Shown here in pieces: positions 5,383 to 28,230 of a stretch of 64,000 nucleotides of DNA. The notes under the pieces were generated by a model, which worked only from the letters and a program-made list of their open reading frames with translations, searched no databases and was not told the origin of the DNA. A program made the translations under genes and the position numbers. Source of the DNA: a bacterium (GTDB lineage: Bacteria; Acidobacteriota; Blastocatellia; HR10); the NCBI GenBank assembly GCA_041640655.1, contig JBEPZV010000001.1, forward strand, positions 32,001 to 96,000, read 5' to 3'. Within the stretch, counting starts at the first letter, position 1; each line of letters begins with the position of its first letter.

Positions 5383-6132
5383 TCAGTTTGCCTGAGACCG
5401 TCGAACACCGATAGCAATGATGATCTTCCCCGGAGTGTAGGTCGTGCCGTTGACCGAGACCTGACGACCGCCCGCGAGTCGGGCCCAACCGCGAATGAGC
5501 GTGATGTTGGGATAGACATCCATCACGTTGATGTATTTGCCCTGCCGCAGTGCCGCCACCAACTCATCCTTCTGCTCGATGACGCGCCGCCAATCCGACG
5601 GCGGCGGGCAGGCGGTGAGTCCTTCGAATTTCGGATAGGCGGAGCGGTAGCAGAGCTCCGCCGCTTTGATCAATGTCTTCGAGGGCACGCAGCCGATGTT
5701 CACACAAGTGCCGCCGATGGTGCCGCCCTCGACAATGGCCACGTTCGCGCCCAACTCTGCGCCTTTGATCGCGGCCGCAAACGCCGCCGACCCGCCGCCG
5801 ATGATCATGAGATCGTAATCGGCGCCTTCCGGCTTCGGTGCTCGACGCTCCCCTTCCACCGGGGTCCCCATGCGATCTATAGATCGCATGGGGTGCCCGA
5901 GTGGTCGTCGTTCGCGCACCAGCGCGCGATAGCCCGCGTCTCTGACGGCGCTCATCAACGCTTCATCAGCGACCGCCGTTTCAGCGATGACCGTGGCGTG
6001 CCCCGAGCGCCAGCCGGGCACGTGAGCTTCCACACCCCCCATGACGCCCTTCAACGCCTCGGTCACATGCCGGGCGCAACCGTCGCAGGTCATCCCTTCA
6101 ATGCGTAAAGTGAGATGTGTTCTTTCCGTCAT
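5383..6132 (-). pseudogene. merA: Mercuric reductase-like gene (HMA plus start of FAD domain), truncated at ~250 aa
   Basis: GMTCDGC HMA domain, IIGGGSAAFAAA, GGTCVNIGCVPSK; stops just after KIIIAIG; NADPH/dimerisation domains and C-terminal CC missing. Confidence 0.8.
5861..5898. repeat. 38-bp palindromic element, in-frame in the merA linker
   Basis: GGGGTCCCCATGCGATCTATAGATCGCATGGGGTGCCC; identical to 25845-25882. Confidence 0.9.
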
Positions 6133-6145
6133 TTTACCGACCTCC

Positions 6146-12127: not shown

Positions 12128-13012
12128 TCACGGTTGAACCGCGCGCACCGCTCCGACTTTGTAGCCGAGCCGGTCAATCGCGGCTTTGAGCTGCTCCGCA
12201 TTGACTTTCGCCGGATCGTACTCAACCACGGCTTGACCTTTTTCATAGCTCGCCTCTACGGACTTGACGCCCGGCAACCGCGTGAGCGCTTGCTCGACGT
12301 TCACCGCACAGCCGGCGCAGTCCATGCCACGAATTTCGATCGTCGCGCGAGCCAGAACGGGCACGTCTTGCGGATGGCGGTTTGTGGCGGTGGTGAATGG
12401 CGCGCTCGCTGCCGAGGTTTTGGCGGCTGAGCCCGCACTCCGAAGAGCCTCTCCGTTCGCTTTCGATGCGGAGCCCGATCGCGCAACGGCATCTCGCGCC
12501 GATTCGGCCGCCAGCGCGGGCGAGTCGGTTTGAGGAGGTTGGGATGGCGCTCGCTCAACAGGTTCCGCCCCCGTCAGCTTGTTCGTTTGTGACTGCAAAT
12601 CGCCTGCCGGATCAGTGTCGGGCGCCCCATGGGAACCCCGTATCGCCTGCGTCTTCTGCTTGGGTGAGAGGAGCGCCCAGACCGCCCCGGAGTAATACGG
12701 AAACGCGGCGAAGGCGATGACAAGACCCGTGGCCAGCCACAGCAGGATCTTATTCCACCGACCCACCGACGGGCGCGTCGCGCACACGCTCCCATCGGCG
12801 CAATGTACTTCCTGCTTGCGATAGGTGAAGTAAAACCCCAGCCCGAGCAGACCGAAAGTCAGCGCCAGCAGATAGGGCCGCCAGGCCTCGAACACGGCCG
12901 CCGCGCCGAAACTCCCCAACCCGGCGACCGCAGCCACAATCGGCCCCAGGCAGCAAAGCGACGCCGTAATGGCCGCCATCACGGATGCGACGAGCGTTGT
13001 CTCTCTTTTCAT
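12128..13012 (-). CDS. MerT-like transporter fused through a long linker to an HMA (MerP-like) domain
   Basis: TASLCCLGP, WRPYLL, HCADGSVCA, AFPYY; C-terminal GMDCAGC. Confidence 0.88.
   Translation of the reverse strand: MKRETTLVASVMAAITASLCCLGPIVAAVAGLGSFGAAAVFEAWRPYLLALTFGLLGLGFYFTYRKQEVHCADGSVCATRPSVGRWNKILLWLATGLVIAFAAFPYYSGAVWALLSPKQKTQAIRGSHGAPDTDPAGDLQSQTNKLTGAEPVERAPSQPPQTDSPALAAESARDAVARSGSASKANGEALRSAGSAAKTSAASAPFTTATNRHPQDVPVLARATIEIRGMDCAGCAVNVEQALTRLPGVKSVEASYEKGQAVVEYDPAKVNAEQLKAAIDRLGYKVGAVRAVQP
12620..12640. repeat. Short, internally deleted form of the palindromic element, within CDS
   Basis: Reverse complement CGGGGTTCCCATGGGGCGCCC. Confidence 0.55.
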
Positions 13013-13039
13013 GGTTTGTACCCTCCATTGCTTGTTCGT

Positions 13040-13496
13040 TGAGAGAAGCCCCGAAGAAAATGCTCGATGACCGGACAGGCTTTGTTGTCGGCGATAGCCC
13101 ACTCGCAGGTGGCTTCGTATCCCGCCAACTCGCGCCTCCGTCGGGGGTGAGCGCAGCATATCGGCGGTGCCGATCCTCAAGTTCCCTCGTTCGCCACCTA
13201 TGAGAGCAGTGATCCGAGTCCGTCGGCTCGGCCCCGACCGGCGCGCCGATTTCCTCCAGCGTGAACCCGAATCTCCTGACCCGCTCGATCAAGGTGATCC
13301 GTTCGATCACGCGCGGGCACTCCACGCGATTCGGAGATCGCGTGGGGACCCCGTTCGGATCAAAGAGACGATAGCCGCTCCGGCTCCGCGCCGCTTGAGG
13401 CCACAAGCCCCGTTGCTCAGAGCAACAGAGCCCGCCCCGGCTGACGCCGCTTCGCGCCTCCACCTCGCCGATCTTGAGCCCGGCCTTGTCCGTCAT
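13040..13496 (-). pseudogene. MerR-family regulator, degenerate and frameshifted paralog of 17851-18291
   Basis: LKIGEV...RSRSGYRLFD...FGFTLEEI; HTH decayed, 14-aa insert, C-terminus lost by frameshift. Confidence 0.75.
13315..13352. repeat. Palindromic element, in-frame 42-bp insert in the merR pseudogene
   Basis: Reverse complement GGGGTCCCCACGCGATCTCCGAATCGCGTGGAGTGCCC. Confidence 0.85.
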
Positions 13497-13516
13497 CGCT
13501 CGGTTCTCACGCTCCG

Positions 13517-13548
13517 AGTGTAAGCCCTGGAACGAACTCCAGAGTCAA
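13517..13548 (-). promoter_or_regulatory. ZntR-type MerR promoter/operator
   Basis: TTGACT-ctggagttcgttccagggct-TACACT, 20-bp spacer with dyad. Confidence 0.8.
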
Positions 13549-13574
13549 GGGCCTTTTGGACGAGACCGACCCTC

Positions 13575-13689
13575 GGGGTTCCCACGCGATCCCTCCGATC
13601 GCGTAGGGTGCTCCCGGCGTGTGTCCGGTTCTCATGCTCCAAAGGGACGACGTGATGGAGTACCCATCTCTAGATCGCCTGGGGTGCCC
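13575..13689. repeat. Two degenerate intergenic copies of the palindromic element
   Basis: GGGGTTCCCACGCGATCCCTCCGATCGCGTAGGGTGCTC and ...TAGATCGCCTGGGGTGCCC. Confidence 0.7.
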
Positions 13690-13933
13690 TTCATAGCCCG
13701 GCGTAGCACGCTGGAGAGGCAATGGTTCGGTTCGATCAAGTCCCCATCGGAAACGCCATCAATCGCCTTCCCGACGGTTTTTATTTCGCCGCTTCGGGGC
13801 TCCAATGATGAACCGGTGGCTTCTTCAGCGTGGTGGGCTTGGGCTCTTGCAGGTCCCCCTTTGGGGGCCGAAGACCCCTCCACCTTCACACTCAACCCGG
13901 ACTTTCCGACCTCCTCCCGGTGAACTAACCGGG

Positions 13934-14467
13934 TTATTGGTTGGGGCGTTGTGATGTTAAGTCGAAACTCTCTACGGCCAGGACGAACACGCCGTCTTTT
14001 CGTTCGAGCAGTTTCCCCCTCAGCGTGACGTCCTGATTCTGAATTCCTTCTGTTGCCTTCAGCTTCCTGAACTGTTCGTTCTTGGCGAGTACGAACACCT
14101 CTCCAGCGTTTCGGGGTCTAATGGTCCACTCCTTCGAGGTTGAGTTGACCCGCCCAATGACCGTGATTTCGATCTCTTTGACGGGATCAAAACCCAACTC
14201 GTCCTTGAGCACCGAGAGGATTCTCCTCACCTCGAAGGGAGTTTGGGCGCTGGCCTCAAGCTCAACAACACCGGAGCGCGAATAAGTGGCCTTTTCGACG
14301 CCAGCCTGGCGCCGGAGCGCAGCCCTCATCGTCTCCGGTCAAAGGAACTTCAGGGACTTATTCGCTCCGACGTCCCCGACAACCGTGAGGCGAATCGGCG
14401 CCTCCTGTGCTCCCACTGGTAAAGAGGCACAAAACAAGAGCAGTACGATCATTGAGACCCTCGTCAT
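13934..14467 (-). CDS. Putative selenoprotein: exported HMA-like protein, U43, 177 aa
   Basis: ORFs 14339-14524 and 13934-14329 share a frame, separated by one TGA (14339-41): KFL-U-PETMRAALRRQAGVEKA; homologous to 21017-21580; hairpin CGGCGCCA-GGC-TGGCGTCG. Confidence 0.75.
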
Positions 14468-14616
14468 AATCGCCCCCTCCTCAGAAAAGAGTGGCGCAGA
14501 CTTCAGTCTGCGCGAGGTTTTCATCGTTTCTGGGCGTCCTCATGGACGCCATGGATAACTCCCCGAAACTCATAAGTCTGGAGAGAAACCCGGCAGCTCG
14601 CTTCACCCGACCGATC

Positions 14617-15015
14617 TCATCGGCCGCAGGAATTCCCCCGCCAATACTTTCCCCATACTCGTTCCGGCAAGAGAGTCAACGCGCAGCCGCCCAGGATCAC
14701 GGCCAGGCCGATCCCCATCCACCCCGTGGCCGAGAGCGACACCAGCCCCACACCGTGAGCCAAAGAGACGCCCGCCCCGATCAAAAACAACGGCCCCGTG
14801 AAATAACAATGCACTCGCCCACAGCGAGCGGCATTCACAAGGCATCCCGCTCCGGCTACACCAAGCGAAACCGACCAGAGCACCGCCCGAAGGCTCGGGC
14901 TTGTGAAAAAGCCAACGGCGAAGACCGCGAGCGGCAGTTTCCATACAATCAGCGAAACCCACTTGCTCGCGACGAGATCTTTCGGCTCAGCGCCACCACA
15001 ACAGTCTGCACTCAT
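14617..15015 (-). CDS. Small Cys-rich membrane protein (mer-operon type)
   Basis: N-terminal CC, CLVNAARCGRVHCYFTGP, about 4 TM. Confidence 0.7.
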   Translation of the reverse strand: MSADCCGGAEPKDLVASKWVSLIVWKLPLAVFAVGFFTSPSLRAVLWSVSLGVAGAGCLVNAARCGRVHCYFTGPLFLIGAGVSLAHGVGLVSLSATGWMGIGLAVILGGCALTLLPERVWGKYWRGNSCGR

Positions 15016-15024
15016 GGCTTCACC

Positions 15025-15552
15025 TCACGTCTCCGTCACGGCGTAGCCATCGGGCATCGGGGCCGCGACAGCTTCCTCCCGCCTTCTTGTCGAATCCGAT
15101 CGCTTCAGCGCTCTGAGCACAACCCCGGTCACCACGCCGAGGCAACACCGGCCCGACGGATTCATGATCTCACAGGCGCATCGGCCGGCCTTGACCTGCG
15201 CCTTGATGTAATCGGGAATCGTCGTTCGTCCCGTCGCCGCGATCTCATCGCGCACCATCTTCTCCGTGACGCCGAAGCAATAGCAGATCGGCACCGGGTC
15301 TTCGGTCTCCTTCACCCCCACCCGCACGCGCACGTCACTTTTGTAGAAGTACGCGTCGGCCTCGTTGGAGAAGTACACGACCGGACACGTGGGCGTCGCG
15401 CAGAAGAAGTGGGGATGATCGGTCAGACGCGCTACCGCCGACTCCACAAGCAGATGCTCCATCGTCCGCCGCGTGACGGGCTTCCCCTTCCGCCCACACA
15501 AGCGGCAGTGGGCGGAATGGACCACGATCGGCACCTGGCAACATTCGGACAT
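15025..15552 (-). CDS. CopZ Zn-binding / BFD-like [2Fe-2S] metallochaperone
   Basis: CRLCG, FFCATPTCPVVYF, PICYCFG, CACEIMNPSGRCCLG. Confidence 0.85.
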   Translation of the reverse strand: MSECCQVPIVVHSAHCRLCGRKGKPVTRRTMEHLLVESAVARLTDHPHFFCATPTCPVVYFSNEADAYFYKSDVRVRVGVKETEDPVPICYCFGVTEKMVRDEIAATGRTTIPDYIKAQVKAGRCACEIMNPSGRCCLGVVTGVVLRALKRSDSTRRREEAVAAPMPDGYAVTET

Positions 15553-15588
15553 GCGTCTTTCACCTCCTTGAGCGACCGGGCTCGTCTG

Positions 15589-16941
15589 TCAGACCATGTA
15601 GCTCACGTCTGAGCAACTGCTCGGATAGGCATAAGGCATCCGCTTCAGATCAGCCGCGCGAAGCCCCAATCTAATGGCCAGGCCAAACAGATTGATGACC
15701 TCCTCGGCATGAGGCCCCAGCAAATGCGCGCCGAGAATCCGATCGCTCCCCTCCTCGACGAGCACCTTGAATCCTGAATGCGTCATTCCCACTCGGCGCG
15801 ACGAATACCAGCCGGATGTATCCTCGCGCTTGACCCTGAACGTCAACCCCTCCGCGCGAGCCTTCTCTTCGTGCAACCCCACCGATGCCAGAGGCGGGAT
15901 CGTGAAGACGACCGTGGGCACCCCCGTGTAATCCGGGCGGCGGTGATTCCCTTCGAGGAGATTACTGGCCACGACCTGCCCTTCGATGGCGGCCACAGGC
16001 GTCAGCGGCGGGCCGCCGCTCGCCGCCACATCGCCGGCCGCGTAGACCGCCGGATTCGAGATGCTCTGGAGATATTCGTTGACGAGGACGCCTCGCCGAT
16101 CGCTCGCCACGCCCGCCACGTCCAGGTTGAGATCCTCGATGTCCGGCGCGCGCCCCGCACCGTGCACCACGAGATCGGCTTCAAACGTGTGCTCCACGCC
16201 TCCAGCGCGAGCCTTCACGATCAGGCCGCCCGATCGCCGCTCGATGGCCTCAACCGAGGTGTCGAGTCGAACGTCTATGCCGATGTCTCGCGTCGCCTGC
16301 ACGAGTCTCTCCACCAGATCCGGATCGAACCCTTTCAGCGGGCGCGACCCGCGATGGAGGATCCGAGCGTGAGCGCCCGCCCGCGCCGCCACATGCGCGA
16401 ACTCGAAGGAGATGTATCCTCCGCCGACGAAGACGATGCGCTCCGGGAGCCGGTCCAACTCCAGGAAGTCATCGCTCGTCGTCAGGAACTCTTCACCCGG
16501 AATCCCGAGCCGGGCCGGGCGCGCGCCCGTCGCGATGACAACATGCCGGGCCACCAACTCTTCATCCCCCACGGCCACAGCCGTCGGAGCCACGAAGCGG
16601 GCTCGACCGTGCACGGTCACGATCCCGGCTTGAGCGAATCGCTTCTCTCGGTTTTCCGGAATCGGATCGGTAAACGTGCGCTTGAAGCGCATCAAGTCCG
16701 ACCACTCGATCCGACACCCATCCGAGGCGATCCCTTTGCCCGTCATTCTGCGCGCCCAGTCCACGACTTCGGCGGCTCCCACGAGAACTTTCTTCGGATC
16801 GCAACCGCGCAAGGCACACGTCCCGCCAAACGGCCTCGAATCAATGACGGCGACGCTCCATCCGGCTGCCCGACACCGATAGGCCACCGTCGCAGCCGCC
16901 GTTCCCGTCCCGATGACGATGAGATCGAATTGTCGCCCCAT
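15589..16941 (-). CDS. Pyridine nucleotide-disulfide oxidoreductase (glutathione reductase/MerA class, no C-terminal CC)
   Basis: IVIGTGTAA, GGTCALRGCDPKK, VGGGYISFE, YAAGD, AYPS. Confidence 0.9.
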   Translation of the reverse strand: MGRQFDLIVIGTGTAAATVAYRCRAAGWSVAVIDSRPFGGTCALRGCDPKKVLVGAAEVVDWARRMTGKGIASDGCRIEWSDLMRFKRTFTDPIPENREKRFAQAGIVTVHGRARFVAPTAVAVGDEELVARHVVIATGARPARLGIPGEEFLTTSDDFLELDRLPERIVFVGGGYISFEFAHVAARAGAHARILHRGSRPLKGFDPDLVERLVQATRDIGIDVRLDTSVEAIERRSGGLIVKARAGGVEHTFEADLVVHGAGRAPDIEDLNLDVAGVASDRRGVLVNEYLQSISNPAVYAAGDVAASGGPPLTPVAAIEGQVVASNLLEGNHRRPDYTGVPTVVFTIPPLASVGLHEEKARAEGLTFRVKREDTSGWYSSRRVGMTHSGFKVLVEEGSDRILGAHLLGPHAEEVINLFGLAIRLGLRAADLKRMPYAYPSSCSDVSYMV

Positions 16942-16952
16942 GATCGCCTCCC

Positions 16953-17801
16953 TCACAGGACGGCCTTGAAGCCGGTCCTGTTGATCGCGTCGGCCACCTG
17001 CTCGAGCGTGACGCGTGCCGGATCGAACGTCACGACGGCGTGCTTCTTCTCGACACTGACCTCTACAGCCTTCACCCCATCGCGCCGCATGAGCGCCTGC
17101 CGGACCGACGCCGCACACCCGGCACAGGTCATCCCTTCGACGGGAATGGTCGCCGTCACGGCCTCGATCGTGAAGCCGGCTTCCTTGACCGCCTCCACAA
17201 GCTTTTCTAACCGGATCCGCTCGGGATCGTACTCGACCAGGGCTTCGCCCTTTTCGTAGCTGGCCGTCGCCGAGCGCACTCCGGGAAGAGCTCCAAGCGC
17301 CGACTCCAGAGCGGCCGCGCACCCGCCGCAGGTCATGCCGCCGACTTCCAGCCGCACGGGGTCCCCACGCGATCCGGAGATCGCGTGGGGTGCCCGCACG
17401 CTTATCGGCCGCTCGACCGCAGCCGATGCGACCGATCCCCCTTGCTCCTTCGACGGACCGTTCAACGCCGCCCAGAATCGCCCGGAATAATAGGGAAACG
17501 CGGCAAAGAGCACGATCACGACCGTAGCGATCCACAGGATCGTCTTCTGCCATCGCGAGGCCTTCCTGGTCGCGCATGCCCCATCGGCGCACGCCGCCTC
17601 TTTCCGGCGATAGGTGAGATAAAACGCCGCCGCCAGCAGCGCGAACGTCACGACGAGCAAATAGGGTCGCCACGCCTCGAAGGCGGCCGCCGCGCCGAAA
17701 CTCCCCAACCCCACGACCGCAGCTACAATCGGCCCCAAGCAACAGAGCGAAGCCGTGATCGCCCCAATGAGCGAAGCTCCAAGTGCGATCTTCTCCCTCA
17801 T
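16953..17801 (-). CDS. MerT-like transporter fused to two HMA domains
   Basis: TASLCCLGP, CADGAC; GMTCGGC and GMTCAGC. Confidence 0.9.
   Translation of the reverse strand: MREKIALGASLIGAITASLCCLGPIVAAVVGLGSFGAAAAFEAWRPYLLVVTFALLAAAFYLTYRRKEAACADGACATRKASRWQKTILWIATVVIVLFAAFPYYSGRFWAALNGPSKEQGGSVASAAVERPISVRAPHAISGSRGDPVRLEVGGMTCGGCAAALESALGALPGVRSATASYEKGEALVEYDPERIRLEKLVEAVKEAGFTIEAVTATIPVEGMTCAGCAASVRQALMRRDGVKAVEVSVEKKHAVVTFDPARVTLEQVADAINRTGFKAVL
17358..17395. repeat. Palindromic element in-frame in HMA strand 1, flanked by CCGCACG direct repeats 42 bp apart
   Basis: GGGGTCCCCACGCGATCCGGAGATCGCGTGGGGTGCCC; CCGCACG at 17352 and 17394. Confidence 0.9.
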
Positions 17802-17819
17802 CGTCCCTCCTTTCACACG

Positions 17820-17839
17820 GGGGTCCCCATGGGGCGCCC
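17820..17839. repeat. Short form of the palindromic element, intergenic
   Basis: GGGGTCCCCATGGGGCGCCC. Confidence 0.6.
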
Positions 17840-17850
17840 CCGACATCCCT

Positions 17851-18291
17851 TCACTCCCGTTTCCGCCCCCGCCGGGGCTTTGACGCGCGAGAGGAAGGGT
17901 GAAGAAAATCCTCGATGACCGGACAGCTCTTCCGCCCGGCGACGGCGCGCTCGCACTCGGCCTTATAGGCCGAGAGCTCGCGACGCAATCGTTTGATCTC
18001 CTCGTACCGCCGATCGAGATCCTCGAGCTTGCGCGCGATCACCTGCAGAACCTCCGCGCACGTCCGCGGTTCGGCCGTCGGTAATTGGAGCAATTGTTTG
18101 ATCTCCTCGAGCGTGAAGCCGAAGCTCTGCGCCCGCTTGATGAAGCGCAGGCGCTCGATCACGCGCGGATCGTACAGCCGATACCCGCTCTGCGTCCGAG
18201 CAGCTCTCGGCAAAAGCCCCAACCGTTCGTAGTAGCGGAGCGTATCCACGCTCACGCCACATTCGGTGGCCACCTGGCCGATCTTCAACAC
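17851..18291 (-). CDS. Heavy-metal-responsive MerR-family regulator
   Basis: LKIGQVA...TLRYYERLGLL...GYRLY...GFTLEEIK; Cys in TCAEV, AECE, SCPVI; GTG start after GGAGG. Confidence 0.92.
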   Translation of the reverse strand: MLKIGQVATECGVSVDTLRYYERLGLLPRAARTQSGYRLYDPRVIERLRFIKRAQSFGFTLEEIKQLLQLPTAEPRTCAEVLQVIARKLEDLDRRYEEIKRLRRELSAYKAECERAVAGRKSCPVIEDFLHPSSRASKPRRGRKRE

Positions 18292-18325
18292 CGCCGCTTC
18301 CCCTCCGCTCGTTTTCACAACCGCC

Positions 18326-18357
18326 AGTATAAACCCTGGACCTATCTCCAGAGTCAA
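18326..18357 (-). promoter_or_regulatory. ZntR-type MerR promoter/operator
   Basis: TTGACT-ctggagataggtccagggtt-TATACT; dyad ACTCTGGA/TCCAGGGT. Confidence 0.85.
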
Positions 18358-18536
18358 GCGAAAGCTTCAGGTGTGCCACCCCAAGCCAGGCACGAGCGGT
18401 TCCCTGGCGGCCATCGCATCTACAGCGATGACGTGCCGATTGCGTATCACCGAATATGTCGAGCGGGGTCTCGCCGGCGCGTGAGTTCGAGCTCCATCGT
18501 TTCACCCGAACATGGGTGACTTGTTGAGTCGCCCCT

Positions 18537-20720
18537 TCAATTGGGTCGGCGCGCGCGTTCGATCGCCTCCAGCGCTGCTGCCAACCACTTCTCGCCCTGG
18601 CCGCCGAAGCCCACCTGCTCCAGGACCACGGTGCCTTCTTGACCGATCAGCCAGCTGCGCGGGATGCTCACAAGCGGCAAGACGCTCTCCACATACGAAG
18701 AGGCCGGGATGACCGGGAAACTGAAGCCGTGCTTGTTGACGTAAGGCTCCACCAATCCGAGATCCGCATCCACGTTGAACGTCAGCACGAGCACATCCGG
18801 GTGATCTTTCAGGCGTTCATAGAGCTTCTGCACGTAGGGCAGTTCCTCGCGGCAGGGGCCGCACCACGTCGCCCAGATATTGATGAACGTGATCTTGCCT
18901 CGGAGATCGGCCAGCCGCCAGGTTCGTCCTCGAAGGTCTTGAAGCTCGAAATCGGGAAGGGGCATCTGGCGCTCCTCCCATGCGCCGGGAGAGGCTTCCC
19001 CAATCGGGGCCGTTGCCCGCGCCAACCACGCATGCCATCCCTCAGTCGTTCCCCCAAGCTCTCTCCACAAGCGCTCGACTCGCTTCGTCAGGTCTTCTCT
19101 CGATGCGCCTCTCTCATCCGGCTCGGGCCCCTCCAGCAGCGCCTTTTGATAAAAGGCGAGGGCATCGAGCTTTCGGTTTTCGGCCTCGGCCAGCCGCGCC
19201 ATCCACTCCCAGTAGATCGCCTGACGTCGAGCGTGGAGGCGCTTTTCTTCGCTCGGAGCCGACTCTTGCGGTCTTCGCCGGACCAGAAAGTCTTCCATCT
19301 GAATGAGCACTTCGCGCGCCTTCTCCCGCCGGTTCATCTTCAGGTAGGCGTCGAGCAAGATCGGCCATCCGCGCCAGTAGCTGTAGTCCACGTTGCCTTG
19401 AAGGGCTTTTTTCGCCTCGGCCGAAAGGTCGTCGCGTCGGACGTCCCGCTCCGTTCTCCGTTCGATCTCGCGGAAGCCGCGCTCAATCAGTTCCGGGATG
19501 CGTTCGAGTCGAACGCCGCGCTTGAGATAGAGCTGAGCGACCTGAAGGGCCGGGGGCGGCAGGGCATAAAAGAGGTCGGACTGTTTTTCCGAAGCGCTCA
19601 GCAGGCGCTCGCCGATCGTCTCGATCTCGACAGAAGGGAGATCGTCCAGCTCGCTCGCGGCCTCAAGTCGTCTCAGCCATGGAGCGGGATGATCGGGCCA
19701 GCGCTGAATCCATTCCTCGGTTGCGCGGAAGAGGGCGCGATAGTACGCTCGACGCTTCTCCGGAGGGTCGGTCTCGCCGGGGCGAGGGTGAGCCGCGTTC
19801 CATCGGTCGTAGACGATGAGGGACATCACGCCGCTGGAGTGAGGGAATCGGCGCAGCATCTCCTCTTCCACCCAGCGAAGGCCCTGGGCGTCGCCGGTCA
19901 TCTCGTAGCCCGTGCGAAGCGTCAAAAGCCCGCGCAAGGTGTTGCCCAGCCCCAGATCGCGCAATCGCGTGAGGTCTTCTGCGATCTGTTTTCGGAGCCG
20001 CGGATGTTCCGTCACGGGCTTCGCCTGGAACTCCAGTCGCCACAGGGTTTGGTAATAGGAGAGGTCTTCGGGATCGGTCCGGCTCCGAAGCCGTACGCGC
20101 AGCTTTTGGGCGGCCTCGGCGAGGAACTCCCGATCGTCCATCCGGCCGGCAAGCTCATACGCCTCCACGCTCGAGGGGCAGAGCCTCATGAACGTCTCCA
20201 GATGGGCGCGCGCTTTCTGCAGATCTTTCCAGGGGCCCTGCAGATGGATTCGGGCCAGCGCCAGGTGAGCCAGCGGGAAGTCGGGCGCTCGCTCGATGGC
20301 CTTTTCGAGAAGCGCGATCGCCAGGTCGGTCTGTCGGCCGATGAGGCTGTTGCCGTACAGGTACAAAGCGAGAGGATCATGGGGCTGTCGTTCGAGTCGT
20401 GCCTTGTACTCGGCGATCAGCGAATCCAGCTCATCGTCCATGACCTGCTCGATGAAGCCCAGGTAGCGACGGTGGACGAAGGGATCGTCGGGAAATTGTC
20501 TCAACAGGGGGCGCAGGATGGCCAATCCTCGCTCTCGGCGTTGCTCTCGTCCCGTGCGCGCGTCATCATCGAAGGACAATTTCCGGAGGGCCAGTTTTAC
20601 TTCGGGAGATGGCTCACAAGGAGAGTTCACCGCTTGTGGCCACACAGAGGCTTTAAGCGTCACGGCGAGGACGCCGCTTAAAACGACCTGTCGCCACGTG
20701 ATCTTCTTGTTGGCCTTCAT
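18537..20720 (-). CDS. Exported TPR/helical-repeat protein with C-terminal TlpA thioredoxin domain
   Basis: Signal peptide, TPR-like repeats, NIWATWCGPCREE. Confidence 0.85.
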   Translation of the reverse strand: MKANKKITWRQVVLSGVLAVTLKASVWPQAVNSPCEPSPEVKLALRKLSFDDDARTGREQRRERGLAILRPLLRQFPDDPFVHRRYLGFIEQVMDDELDSLIAEYKARLERQPHDPLALYLYGNSLIGRQTDLAIALLEKAIERAPDFPLAHLALARIHLQGPWKDLQKARAHLETFMRLCPSSVEAYELAGRMDDREFLAEAAQKLRVRLRSRTDPEDLSYYQTLWRLEFQAKPVTEHPRLRKQIAEDLTRLRDLGLGNTLRGLLTLRTGYEMTGDAQGLRWVEEEMLRRFPHSSGVMSLIVYDRWNAAHPRPGETDPPEKRRAYYRALFRATEEWIQRWPDHPAPWLRRLEAASELDDLPSVEIETIGERLLSASEKQSDLFYALPPPALQVAQLYLKRGVRLERIPELIERGFREIERRTERDVRRDDLSAEAKKALQGNVDYSYWRGWPILLDAYLKMNRREKAREVLIQMEDFLVRRRPQESAPSEEKRLHARRQAIYWEWMARLAEAENRKLDALAFYQKALLEGPEPDERGASREDLTKRVERLWRELGGTTEGWHAWLARATAPIGEASPGAWEERQMPLPDFELQDLRGRTWRLADLRGKITFINIWATWCGPCREELPYVQKLYERLKDHPDVLVLTFNVDADLGLVEPYVNKHGFSFPVIPASSYVESVLPLVSIPRSWLIGQEGTVVLEQVGFGGQGEKWLAAALEAIERARRPN

Positions 20721-21016
20721 CGTGCCCTCCCGATCGGAAGGAACTCTGCCAGAAGATAATGCCACATTCAAGCGCGGCGAGGCTATGTACGTCACCGGCT
20801 CGACAAGGGCTGCCGCCATGGCACGTGAGGCATCGAACCAGGGCGTTCCGTCGTGCGGCGGCACTCGGGCCTGTCTGCCGACAGGCGGATGACCGTGATG
20901 GCCGCCGTGCTCTCGCATCCTGGGTCAAGGGAGAACCCTTGCTCTTCGCCTTTTCGAGCGCGTTATTGAGAGGGTTACTTTTTGCGCCGCGGCTCTAGAG
21001 CTCGCTCGGACTCAGA

Positions 21017-21580
21017 TCAGATTCCCCGCCGCAACAGGCGCAACACCACTTTCCCGCCAAGTCCAAGACCATCCTCGCCCAATGGCTCAAAGTTCTCAAC
21101 GGTGAGACCGGGCGGACGATCTGCATGGCTGGGATGAAGCTTCCCAGTCACGCGGATTTTCTTCCCCACGAGGTCAGTCCGTTTGCTGAGTGCGGCTGCC
21201 TCTGCTCCACCGGCCAACACAAACGGATGGTCCAACCCGGGAACATCGAGCGTCGGGAATTCTCCCTGCGCAATCAATGTCCCATCAACCACCACCACAA
21301 TAGCGGCTGGGGTGAAGCCCGCATCCCGGAGCGCCTGGGGGATCCGAACGGGATCGAAGGATTTTCCGGGCCGGGGAAACACCTCCACTTCTCCTCTCGC
21401 CAGGTTCACGTCGGCACGATCAACGCCTTCCAGGCGCTGGAGGGCTTTCTGTGCCCCTCGCGCTCAAAGGGGACAGAAGAGGCCGTCAATTTTAACCGTC
21501 GCCCTCACCACCTGAGCCGATACCGGCGCGGCGGAAAAAAAGCCAAGCAGAAGCAAAAGCCATAGGCTTGGTCTGTTCAT
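21017..21580 (-). CDS. Putative selenoprotein: exported HMA-domain protein with CxxU (C36-P-L-U39), 187 aa
   Basis: MNRPSLWLLLLLGFFSAAPVSA-QVVRATVKIDGLFCPL-TGA(21464-66)-ARGAQKALQRLEGVDRADVNL, in frame with ORF 21017-21409; hairpin CAGCGCCT-GGA-AGGCGTTG. Confidence 0.88.
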
Positions 21581-21635
21581 CAGCTTTCTCATGTTCAAAC
21601 CCTCCGAAGAAATCGGGTCGCGTCATCCGGAGCTC

Positions 21636-22649
21636 CTAGAACAAAAATCGGAATCCGAGAAGAAAGGTCGAACCAGGCTCCGGTTGCCTCCCGTTGAGGG
21701 CCCGGACGACCGGAATCGGAGCCGAGAATTCGACCAAAAATCGGTCGCTGAGGAAGTACTGGATTCCCGGTGAGACCGAAAGCGTCGTCCCGCCGGTGTC
21801 AGGCACTTCCTTGCCCTGGCGGCGGGCGCGAGCTTGCCAGGTGCCGTTCATTTCCACGACGAGATACGCCCCATGGCGGAACAACCGATCAAGGGCCCTG
21901 CGCGGCCACCCGGCCCGAGCGCCTGCCGCCACGTTGTTCGATGAGATGACAAAGCGCGACAGCGCGGCGTCAAACCGGAGCCGGTCGCCCACGGACAGAC
22001 CCCCGCGGTTCTTGGTCGCATGAGTGTACTCGAAATCGCCACTGAAGACGTACTTCAACCTCACCGCCTTCTGGAAGATCATCCCGCCGGTGTACTCGAC
22101 CGCCCCCGTCGAGAACCGGTCAGCGCCCGTCGGCACCTGCAATCCAAAAACTCCCGACAGCCGCGTCATCCCACCGGGGGCGTTGCGACTGTAGAGCCCA
22201 TCGTACTGAACGAACACTCGCGCGTCGGCCAACCCACTCACGCGCTCTCGCTCTGCTTCACCTCCCATCCGATGGGTCACATCTACGATCGCGTAAGGCT
22301 GAGCCAGGATGACCATCCAGCCCGGAGAAAATCCGTAGACAACGGTCACCGCCGGAACATACTGAGTGACGCCGACCGATCCTTCCTCCATTCGAAGAGA
22401 AGAATGCCGAATTTCAACGGATGAGCGGATGAGCGTCGCCCGATTGAAGAGCGTCCGGGCGCTCGGCGCCACGATGGTCTGCGCGCGCCCGTCGGCCGAT
22501 GAAAGCCCCATGCCGCCGATGAGCACGAGCGCGATGCTCCAGGACGCCGGTCTCCGAAATCGCGCAGGCTTCCCGGCCGGCTTTCCCCAAGGCCCAGCCG
22601 TCGAGGCGAAGGCCGCTACAAATTCCGACGTTTCCGACCGACGCGGCAT
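21636..22649 (-). CDS. Putative outer-membrane beta-barrel protein (start uncertain)
   Basis: Amphipathic strands (SGLADARVFVQY, GLQVPTG, LSVSPGIQY), C-terminal Phe. Confidence 0.65.
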   Translation of the reverse strand: MPRRSETSEFVAAFASTAGPWGKPAGKPARFRRPASWSIALVLIGGMGLSSADGRAQTIVAPSARTLFNRATLIRSSVEIRHSSLRMEEGSVGVTQYVPAVTVVYGFSPGWMVILAQPYAIVDVTHRMGGEAERERVSGLADARVFVQYDGLYSRNAPGGMTRLSGVFGLQVPTGADRFSTGAVEYTGGMIFQKAVRLKYVFSGDFEYTHATKNRGGLSVGDRLRFDAALSRFVISSNNVAAGARAGWPRRALDRLFRHGAYLVVEMNGTWQARARRQGKEVPDTGGTTLSVSPGIQYFLSDRFLVEFSAPIPVVRALNGRQPEPGSTFLLGFRFLF

Positions 22650-22663
22650 GTGACGACCCGTTG

Positions 22664-22963
22664 TCAAAAGAGGCGGAGGCTCCAAAGTAAGGCCGAGACG
22701 CCCGTCCCCGCCCACACCGTGAAGCGAGCCGTTCGCCCTCCCTGCCCCTTCACGTTCACCAGATAATGCGCGCGCAGCAGAGCGTACACGGTGAGGGCCC
22801 CGAAGATCGCCTTCCCGCGGGCGAAGATCACGTGCGCGGCGACGGCCCCTGCTGTCCCGAGCAGGGCGAACACCGTTGGCGCCAGTCAGCACCAGGGGAG
22901 CGACGCCAGTACCGCCACCCCACTGCAGATCGGCCCCCACCGCCAAGCGCGCCGCTTCTCCAT
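22664..22963 (-). CDS. Putative selenoprotein: small MerT/MerF-like membrane protein with a CU pair (C25-U26), 99 aa
   Basis: AAGGAGG RBS, ATG 22963: ...AVLASLPWC-TGA(22886-88)-LAPTVFALLG..., in frame with ORF 22664-22873; hairpin CCCTGCT-CGGGAC-AGCAGGG. Confidence 0.8.
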
Positions 22964-23053
22964 CTCGGCCTCCTTTGATCCACCGGGGAGTGCCCGCGCA
23001 GACGCTCCCCGGGGCACCCACTGCGATCTATACTCGAGTAGTGACTGACGCCG

Positions 23054-23227
23054 TCACTTCTTCAGCGGACAGGCATCGCGGCAGATGATCTTGCCCGTGA
23101 GCGGGCAGACGATCCGACCCGGGCAGCTCGATGGGCTCTCGGACGATGCCTTGAACCCATAGAGCGCTCCCGATCCGATCGCTCCGCTCAACACGAGCAG
23201 CAACACGATCCGGCGCATTCGTCGCAT
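23054..23227 (-). CDS. 57-aa exported/anchored four-Cys peptide (below ORF-track cutoff)
   Basis: MRRMRRIVLLLVLSGAIGSGALYGFKASSESPSSCPGRIVCPLTGKIICRDACPLKK; GGAGG RBS at the end of merR. Confidence 0.75.
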   Translation of the reverse strand: MRRMRRIVLLLVLSGAIGSGALYGFKASSESPSSCPGRIVCPLTGKIICRDACPLKK

Positions 23228-23230
23228 CGG

Positions 23231-23680
23231 TCATCCCTCCTTTCCGTGATCTGGGCGGTGATGCCCGGCCAGCGTCATGATGAGCGAGCAGACGTAGGGC
23301 GAGGAGTCTGCTTGATCGGGCATCGCGTCCAGTTGGGCGAGCAGAGCGGATAGCTCCCGGCGAAAGGCTCGCAGTTCGGCGATCTTTCGATCCAGCGCCC
23401 GAAGCTTTTCCCGAAGCAAGGCTCGGACTCGCGCACATGGCGATCGCCCCTCGCGGCTGAGCATGACAAGCTCTCGAATCTCCGCCAGCGACAGCCCCAG
23501 CGCCTGCGCCGCTCGAATGAAGCGCAGCCGCATGAGCGCCGCCTCATCGTAGAGGCGATAGCCCGAACGCGTCCGCGCCGCCCGCCCCAACAATCCCTCC
23601 CGCTCGTAATAGCGAACCGTCTGAGGCTTCACCCCCACGGCCCGCGCCAGCTCGCCGATGTAAAACGTCCGACCCGACAT
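23231..23680 (-). CDS. Heavy-metal-responsive MerR-family regulator
   Basis: YIGELARAVGV...TVRYYEREGLL...SPCARV...YVCSLI. Confidence 0.92.
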   Translation of the reverse strand: MSGRTFYIGELARAVGVKPQTVRYYEREGLLGRAARTRSGYRLYDEAALMRLRFIRAAQALGLSLAEIRELVMLSREGRSPCARVRALLREKLRALDRKIAELRAFRRELSALLAQLDAMPDQADSSPYVCSLIMTLAGHHRPDHGKEG

Positions 23681-23704
23681 CTCACGCCTCCTTTCACACT
23701 CGCT

Positions 23705-23736
23705 ATTCTAAACCTTGCAGCCAACTGCAAGGTCAA
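23705..23736 (-). promoter_or_regulatory. MerR-type promoter with perfect 9-4-9 operator
   Basis: TTGACC-ttgcagttggctgcaaggtt-TAGAAT; ACCTTGCAG-TTGG-CTGCAAGGT. Confidence 0.85.
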
Positions 23737-23786
23737 GCCCCATTTTTCAGCGCGGGCAGAGGGAGCGCCCCTGGAGAGCTTCGGTG

Positions 23787-23830
23787 TGTAATCTCGATTA
23801 CTGAACGGCTCGGTCGGATGGCGTTAAGCT
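23787..23830 (+). promoter_or_regulatory. Crp-type site and -10 upstream of the TlpA/DUF3179/OsmC operon
   Basis: TGTAA-TCTCGA-TTACT; TAAGCT at 23825. Confidence 0.5.
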
Positions 23831-24594
23831 GGTGGCTCGATGCGAATTTCCGATCTCTGCGAATTTCCAATCTGCCGGAGACGATCATGACCGATCGAAG
23901 AATACCGGACGGCATTGTCCGAGGCCGGAACGCGAGGCCCTCCATCCGGCCGCGCCTACGGCCGACTATTTCGGCCCACACGATACTCTCGACAGCCGCG
24001 CTGAGATGCTCAGGAGCACGAGGGACCGTCCGCCTCTCGCATGCACGCGTTGTTGTGATCGCTGTCTCCCTGGTTGCCGGAATATCGTTCACTGCCGGCA
24101 GCAGGGGCGCATGGTCACGCGTCTCGGCTCATGATTCGACTCTCGCCGTTGCCGCCGACAAGGATGCTGATGAGAGGGGTCGGCCCGCGCCGGAGCTCGA
24201 GCTTGTGGATGTTCGCGGTCGCCCGGTGCGTTTGGCCGCCCTCCGGGGTAAAGTCGTGATCGTGAATTTGTGGGCGACCTGGTGCCCTCCCTGCGTGATG
24301 GAAGTCCCGACCTTCAAGAAGCTCCACGCGACGTATCGAGATCGGGGGCTGGAGATCATCGCCATCTCTCTAGACGAGGACGAACGAGAGGTCAAAACGT
24401 TCATCCGGGAACACGCCCTCCCCTACACCGTCATCCTCGGCGATGAACAGATCGCGGAGAAGTTCGGCGCGTTGACGGGACTCCCCATGACGTTTTTCAT
24501 TGATCGGAAAGGGCGCATCCGTGCCGAGCACGCCGGTTTCATGGACGAGGAAGATTTCGTCCGCGAGGTCGAACGATTGCTGTCGGAGCCGTGA
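23818..24594 (+). CDS. TlpA-family thiol:disulfide oxidoreductase (true start probably further downstream)
   Basis: NLWATWCPPCVME, GLPMTFFID. Confidence 0.85.
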   Translation: MALSWWLDANFRSLRISNLPETIMTDRRIPDGIVRGRNARPSIRPRLRPTISAHTILSTAALRCSGARGTVRLSHARVVVIAVSLVAGISFTAGSRGAWSRVSAHDSTLAVAADKDADERGRPAPELELVDVRGRPVRLAALRGKVVIVNLWATWCPPCVMEVPTFKKLHATYRDRGLEIIAISLDEDEREVKTFIREHALPYTVILGDEQIAEKFGALTGLPMTFFIDRKGRIRAEHAGFMDEEDFVREVERLLSEP

Positions 24595-24715
24595 TTCATC
24601 CCGGCTCCGCTTCTCCTCTCGATGATGCGAATGTGGTAGACTCATGTTCCGTGACTCGCCGAAAACGGCCGACACGGGGTACAGATCGCAAGGGATGCCC
24701 TGAAGGAGGTGAGGA

Positions 24716-25828
24716 ATGATCGTGACGCTTCGACGATTCGGCCGGCTGACCGCGCCGCTTGTCGCTCTGTTGACGATGGGACTTATGAGCGCTGCTTCTC
24801 AGTTCCAGAAAGACAAACTCTTTGTCGTCACCCAATTTCCCCCGGAGTTGAACGATCCGGAGTTCATCCCCGCCACCCATCCCGACGGTGGCTACCTGGA
24901 TGACACCGAGACGGTGATGGGCATTGCGCTCGAGGGAGAGAGCCGGGCCTATCCGCTCCGGATCATGGCCTATCATCATGTGGTCAATGACGTCGTCAGG
25001 GGCCGCCCCATCGTCCTGGCCTACTGACCGGTCTGCGGGACGGGAGTCGGGTTCGACTCCGTGACACAGCAGGGGAGGCGGCTCATGTTTAAGCCGCACG
25101 GATTGTACAACGCCGAACTCGTGTTCGCCGACACCGAGACGGGAAGCGTCTGGTCGCTGACGAGCGGCGAGGCGATGGAGGGTCCGCTCGCAGGCCAAAG
25201 ACTCAACAAACTCGCGGTCGTGCAGACAACCTGGGCGAAGTGGAAACAGCTCCATCCCGACACGCTGATCGTTTCCAACCGGACGCCCCATCAAGCCCAC
25301 TACAAGCCGTTTCGCTGGCAGCCGCGCCAGCTCAGCTCCGTTTTCGAGCGCACGCTCACGCATCGAGATGAGCGACTGGGAAGAATGGAGCTGGTCCTGG
25401 CGGTGGCCCTGGGCGATGAACGCAAAGCCTATCCCTTATCCACGCTCAAGCAAGCGGGCGGCGTGGTGAACGATGTCGTCGGCGGCGTGCCGATCGTCGT
25501 CTTCTACGATCCACAGACGAACACCGCCGCCGCTTACGAGCGCAAGCTGGGCAAACGGGTGCTCCGCTTCGAGAACGCAGATCGGCAGGGCGAACGGGCA
25601 CCCCACGCGACCTCCAGTTCGCGTGGGGACCCCATACGGCTCGAGGCGGTGGATACGGCGACGCGTTCCCGGTGGAACCTGGCCGGTCGCGCCGAGTCGG
25701 GCCGACTGCGCGGCGAGCAACTTGCAGCCGTGCCGGCTCACACGGGAGCCTGGTACGCCTGGGCCGCCTACTTCCCGGATACGAAGATTTACACCTCGGC
25801 CGCTCGTCAAAGGGAGCGCCAGAAGTAG
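24716..25828 (+). CDS. Putative selenoprotein: DUF3179-like exported protein, U104xxC, 370 aa
   Basis: RAYPLRIMAYHHVVND...PIVLAY-TGA(25025-27)-PVCGTGVGFD, in frame with ORF 25061-25828; hairpin GGAGTCG-GGTT-CGACTCC. Confidence 0.88.
25596..25633. repeat. Palindromic element in-frame in the DUF3179 gene
   Basis: GGGCACCCCACGCGACCTCCAGTTCGCGTGGGGACCCC. Confidence 0.85.
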
Positions 25829-25844
25829 AGGCATATGACTGCGC

Positions 25845-25882
25845 GGGGTCCCCATGCGATCTATAGATCGCATGGGGTGCCC
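25845..25882. repeat. Palindromic element, intergenic
   Basis: Identical to 5861-5898. Confidence 0.9.
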
Positions 25883-25990
25883 GAGCGCCCATGTCACGTC
25901 TTTCGCGATCGCCGCCATCGGGTGTTCAAGCGGAGGTTCACGGAAAGGGACTCCGCATTCGGCCAAAATAGATTATGTGGAGGTCAACCG

Positions 25991-26488
25991 ATGAACAGCG
26001 CTGTGGTTTATCGTTCGCGGGTACGGATTGAGCGCGTCGCGGGTCCGCTCCGGCGGGCTTATCTTCCGGCGGAAGCGCTGCCCGTTCTCTTCGGCGTCCA
26101 TTCCGAAGTCGCCGCGCACTACGGCGTTGATCCGCGTGTCCATGAACCGCACGCCACGACGCTCGATTATCTGGTGGCGGCGGCGGCGGGCTGACTCACC
26201 GGCACCTTCGGTGGCGCGCTGGAAGCGCGCGGGATCCCCGCCGGAGAAGGACGGCTCACCTCGGAGGCCACGGGCGAAGTGGAAGCCGACGGGCGCGTGC
26301 TCATCGTGCGGCGCATTCACGTGACGTATCACCTGCGCCTGAGACCGGACAAGCGCGAGGCCGCCATCCGGGCTCACGAAAAGCACGCCGAATACTGCCC
26401 CGTCGCTCGAACCATCGGCGGCTGCGTGACCATCACGACTTCGCTCGAGATGGAGGACCTCGCTGAGGATGCTGCCGATACCGGTTGA
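25991..26488 (+). CDS. Putative selenoprotein: OsmC/Ohr-like protein, U68, 165 aa
   Basis: TTLDYLVAAAAG-TGA(26192-94)-LTGTFGGALEARGI...HAEYCPVARTI; hairpin GCGCGCT-GGA-AGCGCGC. Confidence 0.88.
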
Positions 26489-26520
26489 GCCGACACCGGG
26501 GAGAAGTTCATTCGGCAGAG

Positions 26521-26559
26521 GAGTGCCCCATGCGATCTCCGAATCGCATGAGGATCCCC
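26521..26559. repeat. Palindromic element variant, intergenic
   Basis: GAGTGCCCCATGCGATCTCCGAATCGCATGAGGATCCCC. Confidence 0.75.
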
Positions 26560-26637
26560 GTGCGGTTTCTCCGCCGAAAGCCGGGGCGTGAGTCCTTTCG
26601 ACAGCATTTTCAGCAACCCCATGGTGGGAGGTCAACG

Positions 26638-27642
26638 ATGAAGACATCGGTTCTGATTGCCGCTCTCTGTTTCATGATGGGTCCGGGCGGGCTCATCGCG
26701 TTCGTTCAAGAGAAACAATACCTCGATGCGGGTCCGGGCCAGCGCCCGTTCGACGTCACCAAGCGCTCGGTTCCGCTCGAAGACATTCAAGGCGGCGGAC
26801 CGCCTAAAGACGGCATCCCGGCTCTCGACTCGCCCACATTCGTCTCGGCTCGCGAGGCCGAAAAATTCCTGCGTCCTTGGGATCGCGTCTTAGGCGTTTC
26901 GCTCGCCGGCGCGGCCAAAGCCTACCCGATCAAGATTCTCAACTGGCACGAGATCGTCAACGATCAGGTTGGGGATCGGCCCATTCTCGTCACCTGGTGA
27001 CCGCTCTGCAGTTCGGGCGTCGTGTACGACCCGATCATTGACGGCAAGCGATTCACCTTCGGCGTGTCGGGCAAGCTCTACAAGGCGGCTCTGGTCATGT
27101 ACGACCGCCAGACCGAGAGCCTCTGGTCGCAGCTCATGCAAGAAGCCATCGCCGGCCCGATGACAGGAGCGAAGCTCGCCATCCTGCCGAGCCTCCACAC
27201 GACGTGGGAGCACTGGCGGGCGCAACATCCTCAGACGCTCGTCCTCTCGCCCGAGACGGGATTCCGCCGCGATTACGGCTTGAATCCCTATCAAGAATAC
27301 TGGGAGATGGGCCAGCCGCCCCGTTTCCGGCGCCCGCCCAAAGAGAAGAAGTCGGATGTCAAACTCAGGCCCATGGAGCGCGTGCTCGGCCTCTCAGTGG
27401 ACGGCGTGAAGAAGGCCTATCCCTTCTCCGTGTTGAAGAAGAAGCCCGAGCGATTTGAGGATCATGTCAGCGGGAAGAAGGTCATCATCCACTTCGACAA
27501 AAAATCGGAGACCGGATACGTCACCGATGAGCGTGGGATTCTCATCCCTTCGATCGCGCTCTTCTGGTTCGCGTGGAGCGATTTTTATCCCGATACGGAG
27601 GTCTACGGCGAGGAGCCGTCACAGCAACAGCCGGTCCGCTGA
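26638..27642 (+). CDS. Putative selenoprotein: DUF3179-like exported protein, U121xxC, 334 aa
   Basis: GGPPKDGIPALD...KAYPIKILNWHEIVND...PILVTW-TGA(26998-27000)-PLCSSGVVYD...FGVSGKLY; hairpin TCGGG(C)GTCG-TGTA-CGACCCGA. Confidence 0.9.
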
Positions 27643-27699
27643 CATCCGGTAGGCCGCCCTGAAGAGGGCCTCCGGCTCACAGGGACGCGGGCGCAGCCG

Positions 27700-28230
27700 C
27701 CGCGCCTTCATCGAGCTGTCATCTTTGCGTGCAGGCATCATATCCCTTGGGAGGATCTCGCACGAATCAACGACGCCCTGCCCTCGAATCTGCCCACGCC
27801 GTTGGCGCGATGACCGTCACGGCCAAATCGCTCGGCGCAGGCATCCCGCTGCGCGGATCAATGATGTGAGCGATGCGCCGACCGGCCACTCGCGTCGCGT
27901 TCTCACATACGAATCGGAAGAGCCAATGGCCATATCGCTCAGCGCGAGCGTCAAGGCCATGCGCTCGGGCCGGGCCGGATCCCTCACGGAGACGCGCCAA
28001 GGACGATCATCCGGCCCCTTCCCCAGAGCGTAGATCGAGCTTTCGCCGAAGTTGATGAAGGCTCGCGCATGCCCCCGGGCGCGCGCGGCGCTACAGCCCC
28101 CGACGGAACATCGTCTCTCGCGACCGGCGCGATCTCAGGCGCTTGGCGTCGCCGACGCTTCACCGCGCCCCCAGCGATCTCCACGAGGCCGGCGATTTCT
28201 TCGTCTCCACCTCCGCTCACCTCCTCGGAA
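27700..28230 (-). pseudogene. ApbE (FAD:protein FMN transferase) remnant
   Basis: Fragments AFINFGESSIYALG and HIIDPRSGMP...VTVIAPTA in broken frames. Confidence 0.55.

Follow-up and report, generated by a model that had tools for sequence, protein, structure and literature searches.

A stretch of 64,000 nucleotides (nt) from an acidobacterial genome (GTDB lineage Blastocatellia; HR10; assembly GCA_041640655.1, contig JBEPZV010000001.1, positions 32,001 to 96,000 of the forward strand), hereafter the window, contains six reading frames that are each crossed by an in-frame UGA, with an RNA hairpin shortly downstream of each UGA. The question raised by this locus is whether these hairpins are selenocysteine insertion sequence (SECIS) elements and, if so, whether they form a class of their own, as a first-pass annotation made from the sequence alone had suggested that hairpins at paralog-matched distances from the UGA could define the SECIS of this lineage. 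The analysis described here indicates that the six hairpins are very probably ordinary bacterial SECIS (bSECIS) elements; the new part of the finding is a second, conserved hairpin between UGA and SECIS in one of the gene families.

Translation through the UGAs yields two exported HMA-like proteins with KFLUP and CPLU sites (HMA1 and HMA2, U denoting selenocysteine, Sec), a MerT-like protein with a CU motif, two DUF3179 proteins with UPVC and UPLC sites (DUF3179a and DUF3179b) and an OsmC-like protein (Table 1), and the six-gene locus reads as a metal-resistance-type island. In profile searches, the UGAs were spanned by the Pfam models DUF3179, OsmC and HMA, and HMA1 had no Pfam or NCBIfam match in profile scans. 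The UGA was retained in 6/6 MerT-like sequences compared, and the TGA was present in 10/10 OsmC matches.

According to the published model, a bSECIS lies right after the UGA within the coding region and has a loop of 3–9 nt on an upper stem of 4–16 bp, with a G at loop position 1 or 2 (mostly in the form N1-G[G/U]N-N2), a spacing of 16–37 nt and an energy of -7.5 kcal/mol or lower (PMC13188914, section 5 and Fig. 2A). When the 60 nt 3' of each UGA were folded with RNAfold, all six sites displayed every one of these features, in agreement with the match that the first-pass annotation had proposed: loops were 3, 3, 6, 4, 3 and 5 nt and stems 8, 8, 7, 9, 7 and 8 bp long (in the order HMA1, HMA2, MerT-like, DUF3179a, OsmC, DUF3179b), and the energies of the hairpins alone ranged from -9.4 to -11.7 kcal/mol. 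As all testable features of the model are present, these would be elements of a known kind and not a new RNA class.

That annotation had also described a 7–9 bp stem with G in loop position 1 or 2 after every UGA, which was found at 6/6 sites, and loops that start after 32 nt in the HMA pair (GGC, GGA) and after 26 nt in the OsmC and CU genes (GGA, CGGGAC), which were reproduced. Its placement of both DUF3179 loops after 22 nt holds for DUF3179a (GGUU) and not for DUF3179b, where the best fold has a CGUGU loop after 20 nt: this register reaches -9.4 kcal/mol, versus -7.3 (2.1 worse) for the UGUA loop at 22 nt, and a pair probability of about 0.87 versus about 0.11. Furthermore, in L105, the sole distant DUF3179b ortholog seen, the stem forms only at a spacing of 20 nt and shows a change from C-G to U-A. 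Based on energy, probability and this ortholog, the DUF3179 paralogs are therefore probably unmatched in distance. The statement that paralog stems differ in sequence yet keep pairing and position was borne out for the HMA register, and the difference itself had been overstated for this pair, in which 6/8 base pairs are identical and 2 are compensatory.

Hairpins of this kind can also arise by chance, and one alternative is that they are by-products of high GC content and a conserved protein, with another signal, or none, driving UGA reading. A hairpin rule was built from the published model (PMC13188914, Fig. 2A) and the stem length of the first-pass annotation; in its strict form, it asks for a best G-loop hairpin of -7.5 kcal/mol or lower and a minimum free energy (MFE) stem of at least 7 bp, and in its loose form for a stem of at least 4 bp. 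Gene calling by a self-trained dicodon model gave 2470 genes, 2086 of them with a TGA stop; 700 of 1944 TGA stops, drawn at random, and 700 of 6468 cysteine (Cys) codons served as controls. The window sites passed the strict rule throughout (6/6), compared with 61/700 at true TGA stops and 71/700 at Cys codons. Such hairpins are far rarer after genuine stops than at the six sites, so the equal frequency that the first-pass annotation had named as refuting was not observed. Under synonymous recoding with the protein fixed (1000 trials per site), the strict rule was passed in 41, 19, 29, 16, 29 and 6% of the trials for HMA1, HMA2, MerT-like, DUF3179a, OsmC and DUF3179b, respectively, the product of the six rates being 6e-5. 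Single hairpins are thus not decisive; the six as a set are.

Comparison of orthologs provided a further line of evidence. Covariation, whose absence across orthologs the first-pass annotation had named as refuting, was seen in the HMA, DUF3179 UTLC and OsmC families in shuffle tests, whose figures (n/500) are not probabilities because relatedness is ignored; likewise, ortholog counts are descriptive because kin are not independent. For HMA1 and HMA2 together, 96% of cells were paired, with two compensatory pairs (4/500), and for 14 HMA2-type genes from across the phylum the value was 0/500. The UTLC subfamily of DUF3179 also gave 0/500, with compensatory changes at synonymous positions, and in its 48 genes the loop GGUCU follows after 15 nt with 99.4% of cells paired. 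OsmC gave 9/500 with the loop after 26 nt. Slid controls were all lower on cells paired. The loop GG was invariant in the 14 HMA2-type and in 10 OsmC genes; in the MerT-like family, 5 close genes had an identical stem core and one distant gene a weaker hairpin.

The contrast between Sec and Cys forms covers the DUF3179 and HMA families. DUF3179 matches occurred in 102/201 class genomes, and the ortholog set consisted of 30 loci and 53 fetched regions, a subset of 175 matches (150 listed). In this set, 48/56 Sec forms passed the hairpin rule, compared with 3/30 Cys forms; in the HMA family, a helix with at least 6/7 pairs was present in all Sec forms (14/14) and in no Cys form (0/19). Four-fold-site identity over codons +1 to +15 was 0.77 in Sec DUF3179 genes, versus 0.37–0.40 elsewhere in those genes, and 0.30 in 13 Cys genes with CPLC.

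Several observations weigh against the hairpins as SECIS elements. The loose rule was passed by 217/700 TGA stops and 227/700 Cys codons (about 31–32%), which makes the caution of the first-pass annotation about common hairpins fair for any single site, and the protein sequence itself favours some hairpins, as seen in the recodings of HMA1 (41%) and of MerT-like and OsmC (29%). Depending on the window folded, the probability of the HMA1 and HMA2 helices could drop below 0.25; for DUF3179a, DUF3179b and OsmC, this happened in a single 120-nt window each. The HMA Cys controls are not sister orthologs, HMA1 is without a Cys homolog among its 14 matches, and the MerT-like and DUF3179 UPLC genes form too small and too closely related a sample for a synonymous test. 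Moreover, 2/16 Sec sites in the genome (the CYVU protein and the first UXX-star UGA, see below) have no good hairpin. The loose-rule and HMA1 recoding figures are also what speaks for the by-product explanation. Against it, all six sites pass together, compensatory changes and synonymous-site conservation are confined to Sec forms, and two further elements with perfect 8-bp GGN hairpins lie largely or wholly beyond the stop codon. The Sec-versus-Cys contrast largely refutes this explanation, which we regard as very unlikely.

The genome also encodes the machinery that SECIS elements would serve. SelA, SelB, SelD and tRNA-Sec all scored above cut-off, and selD itself carries an in-frame TGA. 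The C-terminal domain of SelB grips the loop G; in this genome, the SelB C-terminus aligns to solved SelB RNA-binding domains (E 1e-20) and retains the SRKY..PLLEYLD..TRRVG stretch. TGA is the main true stop (2086/2470 genes), and therefore there is no global UGA reassignment. selA was present in 192/201 class genomes sampled (the two unpublished ones, G129 and G198, included). Sec forms of DUF3179 are common in the class as well, so these bacteria would be richer in selenoproteins than annotation suggests.

Eight additional Sec candidates were chosen by coding score and redox motif prior to folding, namely SelD, a protein disulfide oxidoreductase, a DsbA-like protein, two AhpD-like proteins, a peroxiredoxin, a UXX-star protein and a CYVU protein without a family. 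An energy of -7.5 kcal/mol was reached by 6/8 of them, and 5/8 passed the strict rule, including SelD, whose loop begins after 26 nt. Two more sites that were not picked blind (a second UXX-star UGA and a C-terminal CxxU in a redoxin) are those with the hairpins extending beyond the stop codon. In total, 13 of the 16 genome Sec sites pass the strict rule and 14 have good hairpins, with loops after 17–32 nt. A further candidate, C1(-) 'LIVUP', was dropped prior to counting, having no credible start or motif. No claim is made that the loop G keeps a fixed codon phase (third position at 10/16 sites), because controls are likewise skewed (Cys sites 69/160).

Two loci among these searches deserve separate mention. 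The CYVU protein (L229, G000:C3:29755-30432) is exported, with a CYV-UGA (CxxU) site and coding-like sequence on both sides, and had no NCBIfam match at 1e-5 and no good SECIS under the hairpin rule used here. An amino-acid dehydrogenase gene (L236, G000:C9:43624-44760) ends in ...GCCA-UGA, followed by a 9-bp hairpin with the loop GGUU after 26 nt and 17 open codons, which makes a C-terminal Sec possible.

A different explanation holds that some of the UGAs are true stops or pseudogene lesions and that, in particular, HMA1 is a short peptide followed by a re-initiated downstream protein. It draws on the public gene calls, as 14/14 HMA1 database homologs are downstream fragments starting just past the UGA, on an ATG in HMA1, four codons past the UGA, with a GGAG immediately ahead of it, and on the lack of a family match. 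Set against this, the UGA, the upstream signal peptide and the first strand are kept in 8/8 distinct HMA1 orthologs, most of them without the GGAG, and the Pfam domains named above run across the UGAs. These orthologs were recovered from relatives in the genus, from one genome of the class and from metagenomes, and a search of 250 phylum genomes yielded none. A terminator reading was likewise rejected, with no terminator-like coding-strand site at any of the six hairpins, and an Rfam scan of window positions 13000–28000 gave two chance-level matches only, neither on a hairpin. We attach a very small probability to true stops or pseudogene lesions. In the MerT-like family, a protein search returned 3 matches, all fragments; a homolog, L095 (G399), has adjacent UGAs (PW-UU) in place of the CU of the window.

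SECIS-dependent recoding of UGA to cysteine by a SelC*-type tRNA, a type described in the accessible text of PMC13582414, was also considered. Such tRNAs are enriched in genomes with UxxU motifs, according to the same text, and the present assembly is 89.8% complete. Nevertheless, the one UCA-anticodon tRNA found scores as tRNA-Sec, in scans that included no dedicated SelC* search, and SelA and SelD are intact; this explanation has, in our view, only the slightest chance of being correct.

Ordinary bSECIS elements therefore remain the preferred interpretation, based on what was computed here: reading frames, conserved UGAs, folds, covariation, synonymous-site conservation, the Sec-versus-Cys contrast and the selABCD set. 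SelB binding, read-through and Sec incorporation at the six UGAs are presumed to follow. In this scheme, SelB-GTP-Sec-tRNA would bind the apical G loop, 20–32 nt downstream, and decode the upstream UGA, and Sec would be placed at metal-binding or redox positions of the exported HMA-like, MerT-like, DUF3179 and OsmC proteins. The hairpins would thereby confirm six selenoprotein genes, of which HMA1 and the MerT-like gene are present only as fragments in public gene calls.

With regard to distance, the suggestion that paralog-matched spacing defines the SECIS of this lineage did not survive comparison across families: the loop is predicted after 15 (UTLC sister subfamily), 20 or 22 nt in DUF3179 and after 17, 20, 32, 42 or 51 nt in HMA genes. 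Since spacing ranges from 17 to 32 nt genome-wide, no distance defines the lineage. The 17-nt value is predicted in five UxxC genes and the 20-nt value in CGNU barrel fusions, and the 26-nt spacing is shared by OsmC, the CU gene and SelD, members of unrelated families. The distance match of HMA1 and HMA2 reflects the common ancestry of one subfamily. Spacing follows descent and protein constraint, family by family, depending on where the encoded amino acids leave room for a helix, with no lineage rule.

A distinct lineage-specific SECIS class, with fixed family-specific distances and a loop consensus of its own, would be favoured by the retention of 32 nt in the HMA1 and HMA2-type orthologs seen and by the loops: a GGN triloop on a stem of at least 7 bp occurs at 9/16 Sec sites versus 1/700 in each control. 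This triloop is a real and strong local preference, yet it lies within the published N1-G[G/U]N-N2 consensus (PMC13188914). Together with a spacing that varies even within families and a SelB that looks canonical, this renders a separate class improbable. If one SelB reads all of these elements, they form a natural SECIS set at 17–32 nt that would be useful for testing its spacing tolerance.

Two kinds of HMA relatives stand apart in their spacing. In L032:1834-1905(-), a CPFU gene, and L030:579-650(+), a UPFC gene (n=2), the only GGN-loop hairpin lies 42 and 51 nt past the UGA, respectively, with other predicted structure between UGA and hairpin; the CPFC paralogs are without the hairpin. A widespread fusion of about 480–500 aa joins an HMA domain (CGNU/CGMU) to an outer-membrane-type C-terminal part (L033-L035, L037, L039, L041, L044, L046-L051, L053). 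Its genes have an in-frame TGA and a weaker, sequence-conserved hairpin with the loop CGUGA after 20 nt, and in 13 of these genes four-fold sites are invariant at codons +7, +8 and +10. A barrel-like gene of the window, at 21636 to about 22650 (weak PF13557 match), lies directly upstream of HMA2, the two resembling a split fusion.

The HMA2-type genes contain a second hairpin, at +7 to +23, which was overlooked by the first-pass annotation and predicted unprompted by RNAalifold. Across the 14 genes it was 94% paired (covariation 0/500). Its one fully synonymous core pair was kept in 14/14 (12 G-C, 2 A-U) versus about 0.38 expected per gene, in genes where background four-fold sites mostly showed identities of 0.2–0.6. 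Against it, the amino acids dictate 4/6 pairs, 5/14 genes do not form the sixth pair, and 2/19 Cys forms reach 5/6 pairs. A comparable hairpin in HMA1 is not claimed, as 99/500 shuffles reach its score and this genome has a G-G mismatch.

Twelve of the 14 HMA2-type genes are of the UxxU form, and their only GG-loop hairpin therefore lies 41 nt from the first UGA, outside the 16–37 nt rule. When the 5' strand of the spacer hairpin was removed in silico, the probability of the HMA2 SECIS was 0.05–0.22 in windows of 60–120 nt and 0.66 in a 50-nt window, with a competing helix capturing the SECIS loop. The spacer hairpin probably brings the far-placed HMA2-type SECIS closer to the UGA or keeps a rival fold from forming, and it may help one signal to serve two close UGAs. 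Alternatively, it could serve the first UGA as a second SECIS of non-canonical type, with a loop that begins 21 nt past this codon and has G as its first base in 6/14 genes. The full proposal is more doubtful than probable, and we put it forward tentatively: a two-hairpin SECIS in HMA2-type mRNAs in which the tether is shortened, the competing fold is blocked and one loop recodes both UxxU UGAs from 32 and 41 nt, with relatives working from 42–51 nt.

Table 1. Reading frames and RNA hairpins of the six Sec loci (window positions)
Feature	Positions	Strand	Basis
HMA1, exported HMA-like protein, lone Sec (KFLUP), UGA 14341-14339	13934..14467	-	Read-through frame, orthologs
HMA1 SECIS hairpin, 8 bp, loop GGC after 32 nt	14296..14314	-	RNAfold
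HMA1 possible spacer hairpin (+12..+24), weak support	14315..14327	-	RNAalifold
HMA2, exported HMA protein, CxxU (CPLU), UGA 21466-21464	21017..21592	-	PF00403 E 4.6e-9
HMA2 SECIS hairpin, 8 bp, loop GGA after 32 nt	21421..21439	-	RNAfold; 14-ortholog covariation
HMA2 conserved spacer hairpin (+7..+23), directly 5' of the SECIS	21441..21457	-	RNAalifold, covariation
MerT-like small membrane protein, CU motif, UGA 22888-22886	22664..22963	-	NF033560 E 1e-4, below cut-off
MerT-like SECIS hairpin, 7 bp, loop CGGGAC after 26 nt	22847..22866	-	RNAfold
DUF3179a, UxxC (UPVC), UGA 25025-25027	24716..25828	+	PF11376 E 5e-71 across UGA
DUF3179a SECIS hairpin, 9 bp, loop GGUU after 22 nt	25040..25062 (first-pass annotation 25043-25060)	+	RNAfold
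OsmC-like protein, UxxxT-type site (GULTGT), UGA 26192-26194	25991..26488	+	PF02566 E 1e-13
OsmC SECIS hairpin, 7 bp, loop GGA after 26 nt	26214..26230	+	RNAfold
DUF3179b, UxxC (UPLC), UGA 26998-27000	26638..27642	+	PF11376 E 2e-89 across UGA
DUF3179b SECIS hairpin, 8 bp, best loop CGUGU (5 nt) after 20 nt	27013..27034	+	RNAfold

Further genes of the island encode MerT/HMA, CopZ-like, flavoprotein reductase and thioredoxin-fold proteins, the MerR-like and MerT/HMA labels being read off translations and not from a profile scan. A mercuric-reductase-like gene at 5383-6210 (-) matches only the first ~220 of 560 model positions and appears truncated; it holds one copy of a palindromic repeat of about 40 nt. 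The genome has 19 copies of this repeat, 15 of them on this contig and nine in the window (at 5866, 13320, 13580, 17363, 25601, 25850, 26526, 29553 and 48639); 11/19 lie inside called genes, including DUF3179a. We take the repeat to be of the repetitive extragenic palindromic (REP) or miniature inverted-repeat transposable element (MITE) type, tolerated in frame.

Regarding known systems, DUF3179 and OsmC-like proteins are listed selenoprotein families, and DUF3179a, DUF3179b and the OsmC gene fall in the listed Pfam families. The HMA and MerT-like proteins are related to listed metal-binding and transport families, but below the curated cut-offs; in the families scanned, none was exceeded by the MerT-like CU/UU protein, the lone-Sec HMA1 or the HMA-barrel fusion. 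For NF041115 (UxxU metal-binding (seleno)protein, cut-off 95 bits), HMA2-type proteins, which have a C-terminal extension, scored 33–50 bits (HMA2 35.9, a UxxU ortholog 49.7, L032 33.2). Neither a spacer hairpin nor these HMA subfamilies were found described in the accessible parts of the literature searched (including PMC13188914, PMC9312934, PMC12013277, PMC13582414, PMC10778597 and PMC2398784), which does not establish their absence from print.

The bSECIS model differs from the HMA2-type arrangement in having no second spacer hairpin, and its spacing range excludes both the first UGA of the UxxU orthologs, 41 nt from the GG loop, and the UGAs of L032 and L030, at 42 and 51 nt. The closest parallel is found in the UxxU variants of [NiFeSe] hydrogenases. 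These belong to another protein family, and the accessible text of PMC13582414 describes no auxiliary hairpin between their UGAs and the SECIS. They share with the HMA2-type genes two UGAs three codons apart, an interchange of CxxU and UxxU and, as proposed in that text, one downstream SECIS for both UGAs. Should the spacer hairpin prove functional, it would account for bacterial decoding of UxxU motifs and extend the distance rule of SECIS search programs.

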